A stretch of 64,000 nt of DNA from an uncultured Alphaproteobacteria bacterium (GTDB lineage: Bacteria > Pseudomonadota > Alphaproteobacteria > Rhizobiales > Xanthobacteraceae): the NCBI GenBank assembly GCA_963707175.1, contig CAVPQA010000033.1, positions 30,443-94,442 of the forward strand, read 5' to 3'. The notes beneath the pieces were generated by a model, which saw nothing but the letters and a program-made list of their open reading frames with translations, made no database searches and was not told the DNA's origin. Positions 17,101-31,921 of this stretch are shown piece after piece; the stretch's first letter is position 1; the number at the start of each line of letters is the position of its first letter. Position numbers and translations under genes: made by a program.

Positions 17101-17481
17101 ACCGACCCGCAGCGGCCGCGCGCTCGCACGCTGTCGGCGGCGCTCGCCCGCATCGTGCGTGCGCGCGCGATCAATTCATGCTTCATTGCCGGTCAGATGC
17201 GTCACGGCCCGCGCGGCGCCGCCGAATTTGCCGAGACGGTTGACCGGCTCGTCAACTTTGCCGAAACGACCGACGCGGTCGCCGGCGTGTTGTTTGATCT
17301 GTTGTATGAGGCGTATGTGGCGGACGCGGACGTGCGCGACTTTCTGCTGCGCGAAAATCCGCTAGCCGCCGCCGCGATTGCGGCGCGGTTAGACAGCGTT
17401 CGGCGGCGCGGCTTCTGGCATCCTCGCCGCAACGATGTGGATGCCGGGTTGGCGATGTTGCGTGCGGAGGCTGTGCCATGA
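14122..17481 (+). CDS. cobN: Aerobic cobaltochelatase large subunit
   Basis: 1119-aa uninterrupted ORF with CobN/Mg-chelatase H-like composition throughout, in the expected cobW-cobN-cobG order. Confidence 0.9.
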   Translation: MHLLTTSSATLDEIVEAVDLGQPPGDIAVLSFVDSDLAGLAAAWEAEREGLPSVRLAHLRELRHPISVDLWIDRVGAHAKVVLVRLLGGLDWWAYGIERLSVLARERGIALAVLPGEDRDDARLAAASTLPAKELDVLLGYFREGGRENLRAMLRCLARYAGCDLEVAAPQAVPRCAGYLPGEGAIDLERLVERKKEGKVVPIIFYRAMLLAADTAPVDALCEALTERGLTPAPLVVTSLKDETAAEFLRGALARLDPALIVTMTAFAAGNAGGETALDGPGVPILQVISATTRRAAWRSSPRGLGAADLAIHVVLPELDGRILAGAVAFKDALPAHDALAFAAVASRPEADRVAMIADRIAALVRLRALPRSERCVALLMPEYPGAPGRSGYAVGLDVPESVQVLLGDLGAAGYAVADAPNSSRALLDALGDGTAALTFAQYENLLTRVPEAAMARVREAWGDPAADPDCRDGAFFFRAKQFGKLWVALPPDRGRSLERRADYHDPSLPPRHALVAFGLWLQHVAKADALIHMGAHGTLEWLPGKAVALTAECFPEIVTGPLPVVYPFIVSNPGEAAQAKHRVAAVTIGHLPPPLASAGLCGDARELERLIDEYAQADGLDRRRRERLAKLIVETAERTGLAREAGIPSNPPPFAGDGREGVDDALRRIDAWLCDLKDLAVKDGLHVYGREPKGVDDPAWHASAAAERAAVLAALDARRVNPGPAGAPARGRRDVLPTGRNMFTADPRTLPTPTAMDLGLLAAGEVVRAHLQTHGEMPRAIVIDLWGSATLRTGGEEIAQGFALLGCRPIWEPATGRVTGVEVLPTATMGRPRVDVTWRISGLFRDLFPAQIALIDAAVQAVAARDEDDSENPLAAARREAGGARLHRIFGNAPGTYGAGVEDLLVRDTDRDAIGGAYLAAASHSYGGAAGEGAAAPGAFAERVAGADLLVHISDDPGRDLLEGAEDAAFVGGFASAAKLAGRAVDLVMLDVTDPQRPRARTLSAALARIVRARAINSCFIAGQMRHGPRGAAEFAETVDRLVNFAETTDAVAGVLFDLLYEAYVADADVRDFLLRENPLAAAAIAARLDSVRRRGFWHPRRNDVDAGLAMLRAEAVP

Positions 17482-18766
17482 ACGCTCCGCTCCGCCGCGG
17501 CGCATGTCCGGGCCTGTCGGCGCCGATGCAGACCGGCGATGGATTGTTGGTGCGCATGCTGCCGCTCGGCACAATGTCGCTTGACGCATTCGGGTCGCTG
17601 TGTGCGGCGGTGCGCGAGCATGGCAACGGTGTCATCGAGGTTACTGCGCGCGGCAGTATTCAGGTGCGCGGATTAAGCCAGGCATCGGCGCCGCGCTTCG
17701 CCGCCGCGGTTGCGGCGCTCGGCATCGCGGCGGGCGACATTGCGGTTCATGTCAGTCCGCTCGCCGGTCTCGAAGCCAACGAAATTCTCGATGCTGAAAA
17801 AATTGCCGCTGATCTGCGACGTGCGCTGGCCGAGCACGCGTTGGTGGCGAGGCTTGCGCCAAAGATATCCGTCGCCATCGATGGCGGCGGTCCACTGGGT
17901 CTCGATGGGCTTTCAGCCGACGTGCGGCTGCGCGCCGAACCTAAAGATGGTCGAGCTGTGCTGGCAGTGAGCGTCGGCGGCGATCGGCGCCAGCGCGACG
18001 CAGCTCGGTTTTGTTGCCCCGATAGACGCCGTGGCGACGGTCATGCGTATTCTCGAAACGATTGCACAACGTGGTCACGATGTTCGCGCGCGCGATGTTC
18101 TTGCGGCTGGGCGAGGCAGCCAATTCGCGTCGGCAATCGGTAGGGTGCTGCTCGGCGGGAAGCCAGAACTGCGATTCCCGCTTGCGCGGGAATGAGCGTC
18201 AGCCGCCGATTGCCGTGCACCGGCTGCGCGGCGGCTCGTTAGCGTGTGGTGTCGGTCTCGCCTTCGGGCATGCCGAGGCAACGATACTTGAAAGTTTGAT
18301 CGAAGCTGCCTCTGCAAGAGGAGCAAGCGGACTGCGGGCGGCGCCGGATCGGGCGTTGATCTTCAACGGATTCTCGCCCGACGCGCTCAGCGCGTTCGCC
18401 GCTGATGCCGAGCGGCTCGGACTTATTGTGCGCCCTGACGATCCGCGCCGTTTCGTTGTCGCGTGTGCTGGTGCGCCGATCTGTGCGTCCGCGCACATTG
18501 CCGCGCGCGCATTGGCACCGCGCATCGCGGCCGACTGTGCCGCCGCGCTGAGCGACAGGTTTACGATCCATGTGTCCGGCTGCGCCAAAGGCTGTGCGCA
18601 TCCGTCACCGGCCGCATTGACCGTGGTCGGCATGCCAGGTGGCTGTTGCCTTGTCAGCAACGGTGCTGCGCGTGATGCGCCGTTCGTAATGGTCGCGGCG
18701 GACCAACTGCCCGCTGCGCTTGCGCAGCATGCCTGTGCGACAACCCGCGAGGCGCATCATGTCTGA
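17478..18766 (+). pseudogene. cobG: Precorrin-3B synthase (CobG), reading frame broken twice
   Basis: Frame 0 gives MNAPLRRGACPGLSAPMQTGDGLLVR...AVSVGG up to about 17976-17990. Frame +1 gives GASATQLGFVAPIDAVATVMRILETIAQRGHDVRARDVL... and stops at 18193-95. Frame +2 gives RQPPIAVHRLRGGSLACGVGLAFGHAEA...HVSGCAKGCAHP up to 18766. Confidence 0.8.
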
Positions 18767-25803: not shown

Positions 25804-26006
25804 GAATTCGATAACGACCAACGACCAAAAACTCCGAGCATGACCACGCTCTCCAAAATCGACAGATGCTGGCACGTGGCCGAGGTCGCTGCGCAGGTGG
25901 TCAGGTCGCCATGTTTGCCCGCAACAATCCCGCCTGTTGAAAGCGGCGCCGTGGCGCCGTGGTTCAACGGCCGCACGGTGTCCGACTGAAATTTAGGGGA
26001 GGCGCT

Positions 26007-28064
26007 ATGTTCGAATTGAGTCGATGCTGGATCCGTCTTTGTCTGATTTCCTTGGTGTTCTCGGCTTCCGCCGATTGCGGATTTGCCCAGGACGGCGGAG
26101 CGGCCAGCCATCCGCTCGATCCGCTGACGGCCAGTGAACTCGTCACCGTGCGGCATGTTCTGGCAAACAGCGGTCGGTTCTCTCCCGATACGAATTATGT
26201 GTGGATCGCTCTTGAAGAGCCCCCCAAGGATTTGGTCAAGAATTTCAGACCGGGTTCGGAGTTCCCGCGCCGGGCCAGCGTTACCGCCGTGGACTATGCC
26301 AAAAGAAAAACGTTTGCAGTGACTGTGGATGTTAAGGCAGCGCGAATCGCAGCGATCAAAGATCTTGGAGGGTTGCAGCCAGGGATTACCGATCGCGATA
26401 TCGCCATCGCACGTTCCGTAGTCAATTCCGACGCCCGGATCAGAGCGGCTCTGCTAAAGCGGGGCCTGAAGATTTCCGGAAACGTCACCGATGCAGTTCA
26501 GACCATCTATTATTCGCCCGGACACGACGAAACACTGGACGCAAATCGCGACCGTCTGTTGCGCGTGGTTTTTGCCTCGGACCAGACCGCGGTCAATGCG
26601 GGAAGCCCGTTATTGGACGGGGTCATGGCCATCATCGACCTCTATTCAAAAAAGGTCGTCGAGCTGGACGACCGCGTCGGCGTGCCAAGCGTGCCTGTTC
26701 CTCACGACATCTTCAATCCCAAGCTCGGCGCGGCGCTCGATCGCCGCGGGCCCACGCCCGTTCGACAGCGGCCGAATGATCTGGCCATCACCGGTAATGT
26801 CGTTGTCTGGCAGAACTGGAGGTTCCGTTACGGTTTCAATCTCCGCGAAGGGTTGGTGCTTTATCAGATCGATGTCAAGGATGGCGCCAAGTGGAGGCCC
26901 GTGCTTTACCGCGCATCCGTCTCGGAGGTGGTGACCGCCTACATGGACCCGGATCGTTTCTGGTCATGGCTGGAAGTCATCGACGAGGGCGGCGGCGGAC
27001 TTGGCGATAATTCGCTTGCGGTTCAGCCGGGCCGAGAAGTGCCGGCCGGGGCCACGACCTTGGACGTTTTGCTGCCCGATGCGGCGCCGCCGAATTACGC
27101 AAGGCTGTTCGACAACAGGATCTATATCTACGAACGCGACGGCGGCAATCTCATGTATTACCGCCAGGGCGATCGTATCGCTTATCGGAAATCCACAGAA
27201 CTTGTTGTCGGCTTTTATTCCACGCTCGGCAATTACGACTACGGCTTCAACTGGATATTCAAGCAGGACGGTTCGTTCGCCTTCGAGGTCGAACTGGCGG
27301 GCGAAGTCCTGACAAGGTTCGTACCGGCGACGACTTGCCAAGTATGCGCGGAGATTGCGCGTGGACCCGGTGCCGAGACCCGCACGATCCAACCGTCTGG
27401 TGACGACCGTTATGGCACTCTCGTTTATCGAAATGTCGTGGCTGGAAACCATCAGCATTGGTTCAATCTGCGGCTCGACTTCGATATCGACGGCGCCAAC
27501 AACGCAGTCATGGAAAACAACGTTCAGCGTATAAGTCATAATGCGCGTCCCGGCGGCGGGCAGAATGCCGGCGACCGCGTTGCCGTCCAAACGCACACGA
27601 TCTTCGCTCGCGCCGTCGACGCCAAGCGCGATGCCAATCACGACTCATCACGGAGCTGGACGATCTACAATCCATCGTCGGTCGGCAGACTCGGACGCGC
27701 TGCCGGCTACACGATCATGCCGGGCGAAAATGCAATGCCCGTATTTCCCGCGCGGCGAGTGGCGGGTCCGGTCGGCTTCACGCTTCATCATTTTTGGGTG
27801 ACGCCGCTGCGTTCGCGCGAACTCTTTGCCGCAGGCGCCTATCCCGATCAGGCGAAACCGGATTACATCGATACCCTCTATCATTACGCGAATGGCGATT
27901 TGATTTACGACAGAGACATCGTGATCTGGTATTCGCTGGGTATGATTTATATCCCGCGAGTTGAGGATTTCCCGCTCATGCCGGTGGAGAAGCTGGGAGT
28001 TAGCTTCGTGCCTGACGGTTTCTTCACCCGCAATCCGGCGCTCGGCCCGCCGCCCGACAAATGA
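26007..28064 (+). CDS. Copper-containing primary-amine oxidase (TPQ cofactor), secreted
   Basis: GGGGAGG lies upstream of ATG 26007 and the N-terminus looks like a signal peptide. TPQ precursor motif TLGNYDYGFNW and Cu-ligand region HQHWFNLRLDFDIDG. GC content is lower than in the flanking cob genes. Confidence 0.85.
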   Translation: MFELSRCWIRLCLISLVFSASADCGFAQDGGAASHPLDPLTASELVTVRHVLANSGRFSPDTNYVWIALEEPPKDLVKNFRPGSEFPRRASVTAVDYAKRKTFAVTVDVKAARIAAIKDLGGLQPGITDRDIAIARSVVNSDARIRAALLKRGLKISGNVTDAVQTIYYSPGHDETLDANRDRLLRVVFASDQTAVNAGSPLLDGVMAIIDLYSKKVVELDDRVGVPSVPVPHDIFNPKLGAALDRRGPTPVRQRPNDLAITGNVVVWQNWRFRYGFNLREGLVLYQIDVKDGAKWRPVLYRASVSEVVTAYMDPDRFWSWLEVIDEGGGGLGDNSLAVQPGREVPAGATTLDVLLPDAAPPNYARLFDNRIYIYERDGGNLMYYRQGDRIAYRKSTELVVGFYSTLGNYDYGFNWIFKQDGSFAFEVELAGEVLTRFVPATTCQVCAEIARGPGAETRTIQPSGDDRYGTLVYRNVVAGNHQHWFNLRLDFDIDGANNAVMENNVQRISHNARPGGGQNAGDRVAVQTHTIFARAVDAKRDANHDSSRSWTIYNPSSVGRLGRAAGYTIMPGENAMPVFPARRVAGPVGFTLHHFWVTPLRSRELFAAGAYPDQAKPDYIDTLYHYANGDLIYDRDIVIWYSLGMIYIPRVEDFPLMPVEKLGVSFVPDGFFTRNPALGPPPDK

Positions 28065-28261
28065 ATGCAGGCTCGCATAGAGTGCAACGCGCGCCAGCGG
28101 CGGACGACCGGTCAGCAATGCCGCAGATCCGGGAATCGTGTGGCTATTCGTTCGCTTGTCGCCGCGCGCGGCACGCAGCAGGCGGCCGTTGCCTTGTTTC
28201 CCAGTGGAAAACATGGTACTCGGCTGGCTTTGGAGATGGTGCACCACGCTGGAGGGAGCTT

Positions 28262-28381
28262 ATGAAGAAGTTTTTTTTCTTGGTGTTGATCGGCCTTGCC
28301 CTGATTGGTGGAATGACCGCGGGCTTCGCGCCTGCCGCGGATGCTGGGCAGCACCGCTGCAAGAGTGGCGATAGCTGCTAG
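28262..28381 (+). CDS. Candidate 39-aa secreted peptide precursor (predicted mature 11-mer GQHRCKSGDSC)
   Basis: Strong GGAGGGAG (28251-58) just upstream of ATG 28262. Sec-type signal MKKFFFLVLIGLALIGGMTAGFAPAADA followed by a short two-Cys tail. No homology is claimed. Confidence 0.4.
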   Translation: MKKFFFLVLIGLALIGGMTAGFAPAADAGQHRCKSGDSC

Positions 28382-28454
28382 GGGCGGCGCTTTCGTCTTT
28401 AGCCCCGTATCTCCGTAGCCGCGTATCTCCGTCAAGCGTTGCTTTTGCCGGCAG

Positions 28455-31400
28455 CTATCGGGCGATTTGGTCCGCGCGCAGCCGGCAATCGCCATGCAGA
28501 TCGCGCGGTGTCTCCGTCTGTGCATCGATCGCGGAGTTGCTGACGGGTATCGCCAGGCACGCCTTGAATTCCGCGAGCGCGCCGGCGGCATCGTTCTTGA
28601 CTGCGAGCGCCTTGCCGATGCGCTGATGCGTCAATGCAAGGCTGCGTTGCCAGCTTGCCCGAAATTTATCGCGGCTTGTGAGCATGACGTAGATCTGCCT
28701 CGCCTCGTCGAAATCCTTGAGTGCATCATCGGGCTTGCCTTCGGCCAATAGCACGTCGCCTAGGCCGACATGGCCATTGGCCAGAAAGCGCTGCCATTGT
28801 CCCTGCTCCGTGTTTCTGATTGCTATCTCGGCCGTTCCGTTCACATAGGTGGTGTAGTTCTTGAAGGCATCGGCGATGTCGCCGCGCGCCAGTTGCACGC
28901 CGCCGATCCGCTCGTAACTGATCAGCAGGTCGAGGCGCCACGTATAGTTGGGAGAGGTCGGAGTTCTCCTTCGCGAGCAGCGCCTTCGCCGCATCCTGGT
29001 ATGCGACATAGTTGCGGTAAGCTTCGTTCGGCTGATTCATGTGGCGTAACACGTCCCCCATTCTCTCCTGCGCCAGAGCCAACCGCCTGATCCATTCCGG
29101 CTTTGCATCAATCCGGCGTGACAGATCCTGGGCAATGTTGAGAGAGTTCGAGTAATAAGCGAGGGCGCCGTTGAAATCCTGCTTGGCGTAAAGATCGTCG
29201 CCCATTCTCTCGTAGATGTAGAGCAAATCCCGGCGCAAATCGAGATTTGCCGGATCGGCTTTGCTCAACCGATCCATGGCGGTGACGGCTGCACGATAGG
29301 ACTTCATCGCCGCGTCGAAGTCGCCTTTCGCCTCGTACGCATCGCCAATCCTCACATCGCTGCTGATCAGGTCCCTGCGGTACGCCTCGGTCTTGGGCTC
29401 GCTCGACGTCAGCTTGCCGGCGATTTCCTCCATCTTGTTTGCCATGTTGAGGGCGGTTTGACCGCCGCCCGGAACATCGAGGTAGGCGGAACTCAACGTC
29501 TCGAGCAGTTGCCATTCGGCGGCGAGGGTGGCCGCATCCGTGCGTTCCTTTTCCAGGGCATTGACAATGTTGGTCGGCGAATCGAGCAGACTCTGCGCGA
29601 CGTCGCTCGACAGAAGGCCTTCCGAAAGCAGTCTTTCCACGAGGCTGGCGGTAGTCTGCACGCTTTGCAGAGCGCGGTTGCGCTCCTGCTCTGCGCGATT
29701 GCGCTCTTGTTGAGCGAGGTATCCGAGAATCGAGGCCGCGATTGTCGTGACGGCGAATACGGCTGCCGCCGCCATGATGAGCCGTTGCAGCAAGCGCGCG
29801 CGGCGGCGTGAGGTCCGAACGAATTCCAGGGTTTCGCTATCGAGTTCGTCACCCCATCGGTCTGCCAGATCGACCGCATTGGCGAGATATGGGTCGCGCA
29901 GCAGGTGGCTGTGCTTGTGCCGTGTGTCGGCCTTGCGCCATTCCGCCTCCGCCTCTTCGACGATGGTGCGCGTGCGCAAGTCGTCGCTGTCCCGTGCGAT
30001 TTGCCGCTGCGCCCGCTCCCAGTGACTTATCAAAGCCTCATGGGCGACCCGAATGTGGGCGCCGGTGCCCTCATCCCAGGCGACGAGAAGGCGGACCTGC
30101 GGGTCGAGAAACGCATCAACCACCAGACGGGCCGGCGTACTGTCCGCAAAGCGCGTCATCGGCACAGACCGGGCGGTCGGTTCGGCGCCCGATCTGGTCA
30201 CGCTCACCAGCATGCGCAACACTTTCGGCGAAGCCGCCTGCGCATCGTCCGGCAACGCCGCGAACGCCGCTTCGGCTCTGGTTGCAATTGCGCCCTTCAG
30301 GCCGCCGAGGGCGCGCATGGATGCGTAGCGCAGTGTCGAGTCGTGGCGAGCCACGACGTCCCTGGCGTAAAGCGCATCGAGCAGAAACGACAACAGCGGC
30401 AGCGCGCCCGGCTCCAGTGACGCCTCCTCGGCAAGCGCAGCATCTAGCCTGATTTCGGTGCGTGGGTCGGTCTCGAACGACAGGCCGGCGGCTTCGGCCG
30501 GGCGCCGGATCATCTCGGTGATTTCAGCTTGTGTCGCCGGCAGTAGGTCAAGCCTACCTTTGCCTTCCGCGAGTTCGACCAACAGCGGCGTTTCCGCCGC
30601 CCGATGCCAGTGATCGCTGCGCATCGTCGCAACAACCAGGACCCTTCCGCTGTTCATCAGGCCCTTCAAGCAAAGAATGAAGGCCTCGCGCCGAGCGGCT
30701 GTCGAATTGCCGTGCGTGAACAGCTCCTCCAACTGGTCGACGACGAGAATGAGCCGTACCTGCTCGAATGCGAGAAGATCGCCATCCCGTTGCGCCGATT
30801 GTTCGCGCGCTGTGAGTGCCGAAACAATCGGAAAGCCGGGATTGGCGGCTGCAGACTCAAGATGTGCCGCGAGCGCCGCGAGCCCCTGCCCGGTCAACAG
30901 TTCCGGCAAGCCATCGACATCCGTCAGTCCCTTGGCCAGAGCCGCGAAGGGACCCTCCGGGTGGCCGGCAGGCCGGACCACGGCGCGGCACCATCGTCCG
31001 ACACCCGGCACGACGCCGCGTACCGTCAGGGCCGGCACGATGCCGGCTTGCGCCAGAGACGATTTGCCCGCGCCGCTGGCGCCGAGCACCAGAAGGAACG
31101 GCCGCCCGGATTCGGCGTTTTCGACGAGATGTTCGACCGCGGTTTTCGTAGCTTCGCTGCGGCCGAAAAAAATCGGCGCGTGCTCAAAGCGGAACGCCTC
31201 AAGGCCGCGAAACGGGTTGCCCGTGAGCCAGATCGCCGCCGGCGCTTGGGGCGCCGTTTTGATGTCGGCGACCCGTCGTTCGATCAGGCCGCGCAGGTCT
31301 CCTTCAAGCTTAGCTTCAAAACTGTCGACGTCCTCGAAGCTGGAATATGCAGCACGAATTTCGCCGCGATCGACGAAATAGCGACTCCAGAAAGCGTCCA

Positions 31401-31833
31401 GCTTTTGCAACTGCTGTCCCAGCTCCAGAATGTCGGACTGCGTCTTGTACTCCGCCTTCGGCGCGACAATTTTGCGGTACGCCAGAAGGTCGGGCGCTCC
31501 ACGGCGCTGCTTGGCCGAGAGCGCGGTTTCAAATTCCCACTCGGTCCCGGTGACGGGCGCGCGCCCGTCAATGCCGCGATATTTTTCACCGGGGAGTGAG
31601 GTGCCCAGTCGCGACCACAGGATCAGCACCACGATGTCGGCTTCGTCGGGCGGCACGATGGCGTCCTGGAAAGTCCCGGACGCCAGCATCGGCTCTGTTT
31701 CCCAGAGATAAGGCTTGATATCGAAATAACGGACGTAATCCTTGGCCAGTTTTTCGATGACGAGCGCAGCGCGCCGCCGCTCGGCAGCAACGTCGCCCGG
31801 AGAAGAAATAAAAATTCGAAACGCCCCTGCCAT
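28455..31833 (-). pseudogene. STAND/NLR-like P-loop NTPase with DUF4062/TIR-like N-terminal module, one TM helix and C-terminal TPR-like repeats; one apparent frameshift
   Basis: ATG at 31833. N-terminus FRIFISSPGDVAAERR...DIVVLILWSRLGT...TGTEWEFETAL. NTPase lead-in NPFRGLEAFRFEHAPIFFGR, Walker A GASGAGKSS (31057-31083) and Walker B LILVVDQLEE. TM helix at 29716-29781. About six 42-aa TPR-like units continue from ORF 28726..31833 into ORF 28455..29009 after a shift at the GGG run 28950-52. Confidence 0.75.
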
Positions 31834-31921
31834 GGGCCGAGAGCTTATCCTGCGGTAACCGCAGGTTCAAAGTCTAATGGGTCAGTCAAGCGTTTCTACA
31901 TCCTTGGATTTATTGTGGGAT

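Follow-up and report, generated by a model that had tools for sequence, protein, structure and literature searches.

A predicted single-pass membrane NLR-like protein encoded within the cobalamin cluster of an uncultured alphaproteobacterium

The DUF4062 domain is a TIR-like NADase according to three 2026 preprints (10.64898/2026.09.04.749371, 10.64898/2026.05.01.722283 and 10.64898/2026.06.25.731849). The first two establish by experiment that it is a glutamate-dependent NADase and an effector of Avs and NLR proteins. DUF4062, or NIR, is the effector in Avs2, other NLR-like proteins, Swarozyc, Evangelion and human TEP1. Here we analyse a gene, hereafter the STAND gene, found in a 64,000-nucleotide stretch of contig CAVPQA010000033.1 from an uncultured alphaproteobacterium of the Xanthobacteraceae (the window, meaning the whole stretch analysed). 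Its product combines a domain of this type with a STAND NTPase, a predicted transmembrane (TM) helix and TPR repeats. On balance, we favour the reading that the STAND protein belongs to a large family of NLR-like proteins, as yet uncharacterised, that would cross the inner membrane once and act as outside-in switches for NAD+ depletion.

The closest described systems are PsAvs2 and other NIR-STAND-repeat NLR-like proteins (Le Mouellic et al. 2026, 10.64898/2026.09.04.749371), which likewise carry an N-terminal DUF4062/NIR domain with a catalytic Glu, a STAND module and TPR-type repeats on one polypeptide. Those NIR-STAND-TPR proteins are antiviral, and their effector depletes NAD+ once activated. 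The STAND protein differs from them in that its NTPase is of the nSTAND1 clade, its N-terminus is a divergent subtype and no Avs model of PADLOC matches it. Moreover, a TM helix separates the NTPase from a predicted periplasmic sensor, whereas Avs proteins recognise phage terminase or portal within the cytosol. The nSTAND1 conflict proteins (Kaur et al. 2021, PMC8195603; Dore et al. 2024, PMC10907252) share the PF20703 clade and the succession of N-terminal effector or adaptor, NTPase and variable C-terminal ligand-binding module. However, the published examples carry EAD/Death-like adaptor, TIR, caspase or trypsin N-termini and have nSTAND1 targets described as cytoplasmic, in contrast to the DUF4062-like domain and TM helix that are the rule here. 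Swarozyc and Evangelion (10.64898/2026.05.01.722283 and 10.64898/2026.06.25.731849) have a homologous effector core with F-I-S-S and [ST]-x-T-E-x-E-[YF] motifs, and are activated by higher-order assembly. They differ in being soluble proteins of ~320-460 amino acids (aa) without NTPase, TM helix or repeats, triggered by intracellular phage portal or replication proteins. The eukaryotic proteins TEP1, NWD1, NWD2 and NPHP3 show the same order of DUF4062, STAND and WD40 or TPR, but with NACHT instead of nSTAND1, no TM helix and a cytosolic or vault-associated location. Single-pass bacterial receptor kinases of the PknB/PknD type join a large cytoplasmic catalytic module through one TM helix to an external repeat or propeller sensor, and undergo ligand-induced clustering. 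Their likeness to the STAND family is an analogy of mechanism without homology, the output being phosphorylation there and an NTPase-gated, NADase-like effector here.

The STAND gene and its parts, all on the minus strand, are as follows (amino acid numbers refer to the repaired product).

28455..31833, minus: STAND gene, 3379 nucleotides (nt) with one frameshift; repaired product of 1125 aa with NIR-like domain, nSTAND1, TM helix and TPR array
31219..31833, minus: divergent DUF4062/NIR (TIR-like) domain plus helical extension, aa 1-205 (sub-cut-off Pfam match, hhalign, AlphaFold2 model)
31528..31551, minus: TGTEWEFE motif, aa 95-102, invariant; matches the DUF4062 'SYTExEY' catalytic-Glu motif (10.64898/2026.06.25.731849)
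29920..31215, minus: nSTAND1 STAND NTPase, aa 207-638 (Pfam PF20703, E=6.2e-85, positions 1-377 of 379 of the hidden Markov model, HMM)
31057..31083, minus: Walker A GASGAGKSS, aa 251-259 (motif check)
30724..30753, minus: Walker B LILVVDQLEE, aa 361-370 (motif check)
29782..29817, minus: Arg-rich cytoplasmic stop-transfer flank RTSRRRARLLQR, aa 673-684 (family flank charge, motif check)
29713..29781, minus: single predicted TM helix LIMAAAAVFAVTTIAASILGYLA, aa 685-707, rich in Ala and other small residues (Kyte-Doolittle, Hessa scale, family conservation)
29383..29712, minus: charged helical juxtamembrane region, aa 708-817, conserved only in the three closest homologues
28521..29382, minus: six TPR-like units, aa 818-~1104, interrupted by the frameshift (Pfam TPR and repeat starts)
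28950..28952, minus: CCC run at the +1-nt frame break; one base less gives the frame of homologue P0002

The nSTAND1 assignment is clear. PF20703 scores 286.5 bits against a cut-off of 27.1, a match to nearly the whole model, and the P-loop and the Walker B acidic residues are intact. The first-pass annotation, made from the sequence alone, had proposed an nSTAND/NACHT-like ATPase. That label can now be narrowed to the nSTAND1 clade. The matches to other P-loop models of Pfam, among them AAA_16 and NACHT (PF05729; 14.5 bits, E=0.032, cut-off 26.7), are marginal, and a search of NCBIfam with the STAND protein matched no family.

The N-terminus had been read at the outset as a DUF4062-type module. 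The Pfam DUF4062 model (PF13271) aligns with it over HMM positions 1-82 of 82, at a sub-threshold 17-20 bits (E=8e-4 to 7e-3). An alignment (A1) was made of the first ~215 residues of 30 family sequences, with a mean column identity of 64%. DUF4062 is the only family that recurs, matched by 21 of these 30 N-termini at E<=0.1 with a best value of 5.7e-5; at the same threshold neither the STAND protein nor any of the 30 N-termini matches a canonical TIR family (PF01582/PF13676). The reference set of bona fide DUF4062 proteins consisted of Eva01 (Staphylococcus aureus pMW2), three other annotated plasmid genes and then 120 PF13271-annotated proteins, of which 119 were used. Comparison of A1 with these 119 proteins by hhalign gave a score of 43.7 (P=3.7e-6, probability 87%) over 165 colinear columns that cross both domains. 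Control runs with the reversed template and eight column-shuffled ones scored 10.7-17.9 (P 0.065-0.65). Smaller references gave weak results, with E=0.022 for Eva01 alone and E=0.0012 for four DUF4062 proteins.

The same hhalign comparison superposes three motifs of the family on those of DUF4062: R-I-F-I-S-S on Y-Q-I-F-I-S-S, D-I-V-V-L-I-L-W-S-R-L-G on D-Y-Y-V-L-I-I-G-x-R-Y-G, and T-G-T-E98-W-E100-F on S-Y-T-E85-x-E87-Y. Residues E100, E98, F101 and F8 of the STAND protein correspond to E87, E85, Y88 and F11 of Eva01. The first-pass annotation had already picked out TGTEWEFETAL (aa 95-105). Ten residues, F8, W44, E47, Q56, D57, T97, E98, W99, E100 and E102, are invariant in the 30-member alignment, and both diagnostic motifs of DUF4062 are present as family invariants, F8-I-S-S and T97-E98-W99-E100-F101. 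By profile and motif evidence, the STAND N-terminus is a divergent DUF4062/NIR homologue, as first proposed, and an NAD-destroying activity of this domain is probable. AlphaFold2 models of aa 1-215 and aa 1-128 (predicted local distance difference test scores, pLDDT, of 88 and 78) are both parallel beta/alpha three-layer folds. In the STAND protein aa 54 (nt 31672-31674) is Thr, where most relatives have His in the conserved loop motif A-S-G-H-F-Q-D; the loop lies between strand 2 and the next helix, at the position of the BB-loop.

The hydrophobic segment downstream of the NTPase stands out by every measure used. The Kyte-Doolittle mean over 19 residues exceeds 1.6 solely at aa 685-707 (maximum 2.35). 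On the apparent-free-energy scale of Hessa et al. 2005, the best 19-mer sum is -1.29 at this site and +5.6 elsewhere in the protein. A hydrophobic segment is found at ~aa 680-710 in nearly all full-length homologues, with a TPR or a WD40 C-terminus alike, and its position is common to ~95% of the homologues. Among 107 homologues, an uncharged stretch with a median length of 23 aa occupies the site in 100, and the site is the protein-wide Hessa-scale minimum in 96%. The 15 residues on the N-side of the helix hold on average 4.8 Lys+Arg and 0.6 Asp+Glu (net +4.2), those on the C-side 2.7 and 2.4 (net +0.35), and Lys+Arg is richer on the N-side in 86% of the homologues. In distant long representatives, a 19-mer sum of <=1 is reached in 70 of 94, centred a median of 687 residues past the start of the domain. 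Hydrophobicity, family-wide position and positive-inside bias thus agree with the initial description of an Arg-rich stretch followed by one hydrophobic helix. The sequence features named in that description all lie where it placed them, the hydrophobic helix at nt 29716-29781 (aa 685-706). Since the NTPase needs cytoplasmic nucleotide, a spanning helix would put the C-terminal repeats outside. The STAND protein is therefore predicted, by the positive-inside rule, to be a single-pass inner-membrane protein with N-in/C-out (type II) topology and a periplasmic TPR array. Across the family the helix is 37% Ala and 53% small residues, a richness that suits helix-helix packing in a putative oligomer.

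The sequence C-terminal to the helix comprises ~420 residues, a helical juxtamembrane part followed by six TPR-like units. The C-terminal piece passes the Pfam thresholds for TPR_12 (33.5 bits, cut-off 30.1) and TPR_2 (31.9 bits, cut-off 27). The units start at aa 818, 866, 914, 963, 1013 and 1061. Thus the six TPR-like units first described are real, but their period is ~48 aa rather than the 42 aa given for them.

More than 4428 relatives of the repaired protein were found among 8000 candidates scored. A search with the N-terminal profile covered 1.84 billion representatives. Counted as clusters at 50% identity, it yielded 6478 at E<=1e-3, of which 3252 remain at E<=1e-10 and 1285 at E<=1e-30. 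The family is found mainly in uncultured Alpha- and Gammaproteobacteria of soil and peat (Steroidobacteraceae, Xanthobacteraceae, Bradyrhizobium, Micropepsaceae), in Verrucomicrobiota, in Planctomycetota and in Abditibacteriota. Median identity to the STAND protein is 60% in the NIR-like domain and 64% in nSTAND1, against 29% in the TPR region. According to Pfam annotations, the C-termini of the top 120 homologues are TPR in ~55, WD40/beta-propeller in ~43, FGE/C-lectin in one and multi-TM OpgC-like in three. The layout of NIR-like domain, nSTAND1, TM helix and outer sensor is a family trait and not peculiar to this gene. The first-pass annotation had called this topology unusual for NLR-like proteins; in a family of thousands the membrane-spanning layout is the norm. 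Judged from sequence, a constant inner module with a swapped outer module marks a self-contained receptor whose switch and effector stay the same while its sensor is exchanged, the pattern of receptors that track diverse ligands.

The loci point the same way. Among 77 family loci no partner gene is conserved, the commonest neighbour occurring at 9 of 77, which argues for a single-gene system. At a minority of loci the genes nearby encode trypsin-like peptidases, TIR-TPR or TPR-S proteins, or Ser/Thr kinases. Paralogues can share a contig (P0053, P0093 and P0099 lie on one of 209 kb), and the 77 loci hold 87 copies; a second STAND paralogue is absent from the window.

Some variants were noted in passing. 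Homologue P0083 has the TM helix followed by an FGE/C-lectin domain (PF03781), the fold targeted by diversity-generating retroelements in other nSTAND1 proteins; it ends in FGE as do the retroelement-diversified nSTAND1-FGE/CLec targets (PMC10907252). In P0095, P0097 and P0107 the TM helix and repeats are replaced by a multi-TM OpgC-like domain (PF10129). P0003 and P0004 (1219 aa) show an apparent N-terminal BolA domain. These BolA 'fusions' are probably gene-calling read-throughs or very recent fusions, because in locus L001 (9782-9988) bolA ends 12 nt before the STAND start.

In the assembly, the STAND gene is not a single open frame. Its span of 3379 nt equals 3n+1 and holds two overlapping minus-strand open reading frames (ORFs) of 1035 aa (28726..31833) and 184 aa (28455..29009); the public annotation (P0001) contains just the former. 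Removal of one base anywhere in ~28944-28971, for instance one C of the CCC at 28950-52 where a single break had originally been placed, gives one open frame of 1125 codons. The repaired reading crosses the break as ...KENSDLSNYTWRLDLLISYERIG... / ...AKENSDLSNYTWRLDLLISYERIG..., where the intact 1138-aa homologue P0002 reads ...AKENSGAPNYTWRLDLWISYERI.... The alignment of the two is ungapped across the break, with 63% identity over 192 aa, which bears out the placement of the break and its repair by one base.

A rival explanation is that the insertion is real and that the gene is here a dead pseudogene, with a product short of its final three TPR units and with nothing functional encoded. The assembled length and the lone annotated ORF are what it predicts. 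The lesion is however the only one. The 164 codons past the break are still open and conserved, at 63% identity to P0002 compared with ~70% overall. Upstream of the break a single substitution falls at columns >=97% conserved among homologues, which equals the family median, so that conserved positions carry no excess of changes; a search for signals of pseudogene decay in the N-terminal 720 aa found none. The cobG gene (17409-18763, plus strand), 11 kb from the STAND gene, bears on the question in both directions. Its alignment with a 463-aa homologue runs in frame 3 for aa 6-204, frame 1 for aa 210-272 and frame 2 for aa 266-463, implying two frameshifts, near 17987-18004 and 18173-18192, in a B12 operon that is otherwise intact. 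Two breaks there could mean ongoing gene decay. On the other hand, with two further frameshifts in the same window the STAND frame break may be an assembly error. Errors in a long-read or metagenome assembly would account for three indels in ~15 kb no less well than decay, and the closest relatives are themselves metagenome-assembled genomes (MAGs). The 1-nt insertion is thus either very recent or an assembly error, and we regard a dead copy as a distinct possibility, somewhat short of even. Programmed frameshifting at the break was considered and rejected, since P0002 is unshifted at this site and cobG holds two more shifts.

How such a protein might work can be sketched from its parts. Binding of an envelope or periplasmic ligand would cluster or rearrange the outer domains. 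This change would pass through the TM helix and license NTP-dependent oligomerisation of nSTAND1, which in turn would bring the NIR-like domains together for hydrolysis of NAD+ or a related nucleotide. Loss of NAD+ would then stop growth or kill the cell, in the manner of abortive infection. A multivalent structure associated with the envelope, be it a phage particle, a cell-wall polymer or the surface of a neighbouring cell, would be an apt ligand for clustering through a single helix. For the family as a whole, which forms more than 1200 clusters (50% identity), largely from soil Proteobacteria, Verrucomicrobiota and Planctomycetota, we propose only tentatively that its members are widespread transmembrane NLR-like receptors, in which a periplasmic ligand of the outside sensor (TPR, WD40 or C-lectin) triggers STAND oligomerisation and NIR-type NAD+ depletion.

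Several observations weigh against an outside-in NAD+ depletion switch at this locus. The copy is frameshifted as assembled. The PF13271 score of its N-terminus lies under the Pfam gathering cut-off of 24.7 bits. Foldseek comparison of both AlphaFold2 models with the PDB gave no match at E<=1e-3 and generic Rossmann-like alpha/beta matches only. The matches included TIR-STING (9lmq, TMq 0.50 at E=5e-3), with SfSTING-TIR, the nucleoside 2-deoxyribosyltransferase NDT (8qc0) and the Cat1 TIR (9mue) also listed; caspases and lumazine synthase score like TIR and NDT, so the fold is compatible yet non-diagnostic. A sequence search of the PDB with the N-terminal profile returned nothing even at E<=10. 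Membrane insertion is less certain than for a Leu-rich helix because the helix is Ala-rich. No defence-system model of PADLOC covers the STAND protein. It had been put forward as a candidate sensing or conflict system, but no system model matches the whole of it; aa 3-152 match the candidate PDC-S60 (E=3e-6), and P-loop matches to mad8 and mad3 are weak. There is no defence island in the window, where PADLOC elsewhere gives generic matches of the ABC-ATPase type and the genes are those of B12 and general metabolism. Finally, the inner module is conserved across phyla beyond what is usual for fast-evolving defence proteins.

Part of this evidence would suit a family that serves as an envelope-signalling or housekeeping switch, responding to the cell wall, the outer membrane or neighbour cells, with an N-terminal domain that is an adaptor or processes another nucleotide, and with no role in immunity. 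The high conservation of the inner module over Alpha- and Gammaproteobacteria, Verrucomicrobiota and Planctomycetota and a window free of defence islands are consistent with such a role. So is the fact that its two closest relatives retain the gene beside bolA/dnaJ, together with the same amine oxidase. Moreover, relatives of DUF4062 include enzymes like nucleoside 2-deoxyribosyltransferase, and a CMP-hydrolase is among the structural matches in a DUF4062 preprint. However, neighbourhoods are variable, the distribution is patchy and at this locus the gene is an insertion. The swapped sensors and expanded paralogues suggest that ligands have diversified, a minority of loci adjoin proteins that are typical of conflict systems (trypsin-like peptidases, TIR-TPR, TPR-S), and the DUF4062 proteins tested so far are all defence NADases. 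We therefore hold a housekeeping role to be unlikely.

The helix could also be something other than a membrane span, namely a buried segment, an oligomer interface or a peripheral anchor, which would leave the whole protein and its TPR sensor in the cytoplasm, like Avs. The small-residue composition of the helix leaves room for this, the Hessa-scale sum is above zero in 27% of homologues, a few distant members seem to have no helix, and characterised bacterial STAND defence proteins all sense cytosolic ligands. Yet the charge-free stretch keeps a fixed position whatever the C-terminal domain, it coincides with the hydrophobic minimum of the protein and its flanks show a strong positive-inside asymmetry. 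Some variants even exchange the TM helix and repeats for a multi-TM OpgC-like domain. A non-spanning helix appears improbable on these grounds. It is very improbable that the helix is itself the effector, with 6-12 helices bundled by the STAND oligomer into a membrane-depolarising pinhole and the NIR-like domain secondary or regulatory: its composition is semi-conserved across the family (Ala, Gly, Ser, Thr) and more than an anchoring role was proposed for the small-residue TM helix of EACC1 (Kaur et al. 2020), but the invariant catalytic motif suggests that the NIR-like domain is the working effector, and merely to place a sensor outside each protomer already needs one TM helix. A spanning helix with an outer sensor and an inner NIR-like effector thus remains the reading that we favour.

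The STAND gene lies in a block within the cobalamin cluster, whose further features are listed below.

25804..31921, no strand assigned: 6.1-kb block holding the Cu amine oxidase, a small secreted-peptide ORF and the STAND gene, between the end of cobB (25803) and the cobT stop (31922)
25959..28064, plus: periplasmic-type copper amine oxidase (Pfam E=1e-96)
28262-28381, plus: 39-aa ORF with signal peptide and an 11-residue Cys-containing tail (MKKFFFLVLIGLALIGGMTAGFAPAADA followed by GQHRCKSGDSC), directly downstream of the Cu amine oxidase
31849..31865, minus: perfect 7-bp hairpin CCTGCGG-TTA-CCGCAGG in the interval that separates the cobT stop from the STAND start, 16 nt before the ATG

The plus-strand cobalamin genes of the window are cobW, cobN, cobG, cobH, several precorrin methylases and cobB. 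After cobB comes a divergent pair, cobT (dimethylbenzimidazole phosphoribosyltransferase) and cobS, with more B12 genes, transporters and oxidoreductases around. The STAND gene is convergent with the oxidase and the 39-aa ORF. In none of 80 metagenomic contigs recovered with CobB does the oxidase or the STAND gene follow cobB. Where cobT is present, the gap between cobB and cobT is 16 nt (L096), 44 nt (L099), 179 nt (L089) or 1.3-2 kb (L083, L087). As cobB and cobT sit close together in related contigs, the 6.1-kb block is an insertion with respect to those clusters. The STAND gene, the oxidase and the small ORF also occur together in the two closest relatives (L002 and L003, 70% and 67% identity), both MAGs of uncultured Alphaproteobacteria. 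There the flanks are bolA-dnaJ-cobS-cobT (chelatase), in contrast to cobB/cobT here; the same trio within other flanks indicates that the block moved as a unit. The oxidase is absent from the other 75 family loci, and since no relatives but the closest two have it next to the STAND gene, a functional STAND-oxidase pairing was rejected. The 39-aa ORF keeps its position in L002 (…EAGQHCTSNCK) and L003 (…DAGQHKCKSGDGC) and may encode a small secreted peptide linked to the oxidase.

No direct or inverted repeats above chance flank the block. Among the genes at 14-34 kb, scanned with Pfam, there is no transposase, integrase or recombinase; tRNA genes were not searched for. One ORF outside 14-34 kb, not flanking the insertion, matches the transposase family DDE_Tnp_1 (E=3.5e-20). 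The first-pass annotation had described a lower-GC insertion in the B12 cluster. Synteny upholds the insertion (gaps of 16-179 nt), and the counts given for two lines of sequence, 29 and 46 G+C out of 60, are exact, but the contrast is modest at third codon positions. GC3 is 0.73-0.745 in the STAND gene, 0.667 in the oxidase and 0.75-0.83 in the cob genes, with a GC content of 0.648 for the window. Composition gives mild support to a foreign origin of the block.

The hairpin before the STAND gene was located exactly from the start. Its 3' arm overlaps the sole AGGA upstream of the STAND ATG, and translational occlusion by the hairpin is possible. It lacks a T-run and any promoter or terminator consensus, and relatives, in which bolA adjoins the STAND gene, do not have it. 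A scan for promoters and terminators at the STAND gene gave nothing above shuffled expectation, and the hairpin is no terminator.

The nSTAND1, DUF4062/NIR and TPR parts of this protein are already known, and the order of effector, STAND and repeats is the canonical NLR plan. What appears to be new is the predicted membrane-spanning version, which we did not find described in the nSTAND1 and DUF4062 papers. A transmembrane form has no instance in two DUF4062 preprints (10.64898/2026.09.04.749371, 10.64898/2026.05.01.722283), and none is described in sections 7 and 11 of the Evangelion preprint (10.64898/2026.06.25.731849). In the nSTAND1 papers the nSTAND1 targets are described as cytoplasmic, and periplasmic sensors appear only for one NACHT-CLec protein and other membrane-proximal conflict systems. 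PF13271 is precomputed on 0 of the 120 closest homologues, because their N-terminal domain falls under the Pfam threshold; surveys based on PF13271 will for this reason have missed thousands of DUF4062-like NLRs. Recent work has established the effector domain as an NADase in other contexts, including human TEP1, so the hypothesis of an outside-in switch is testable now. To date, every characterised NLR-like or STAND defence protein of bacteria detects a cytosolic ligand. If the proposed topology and output are true, STAND switches could be driven from outside the cytoplasm, and phage adsorption or ejection, envelope damage or neighbour cells might be sensed before infection sets in. The family would then represent an envelope-based immune or self/non-self surveillance, in which one protein merges the roles of the plant surface receptor and the intracellular NLR.

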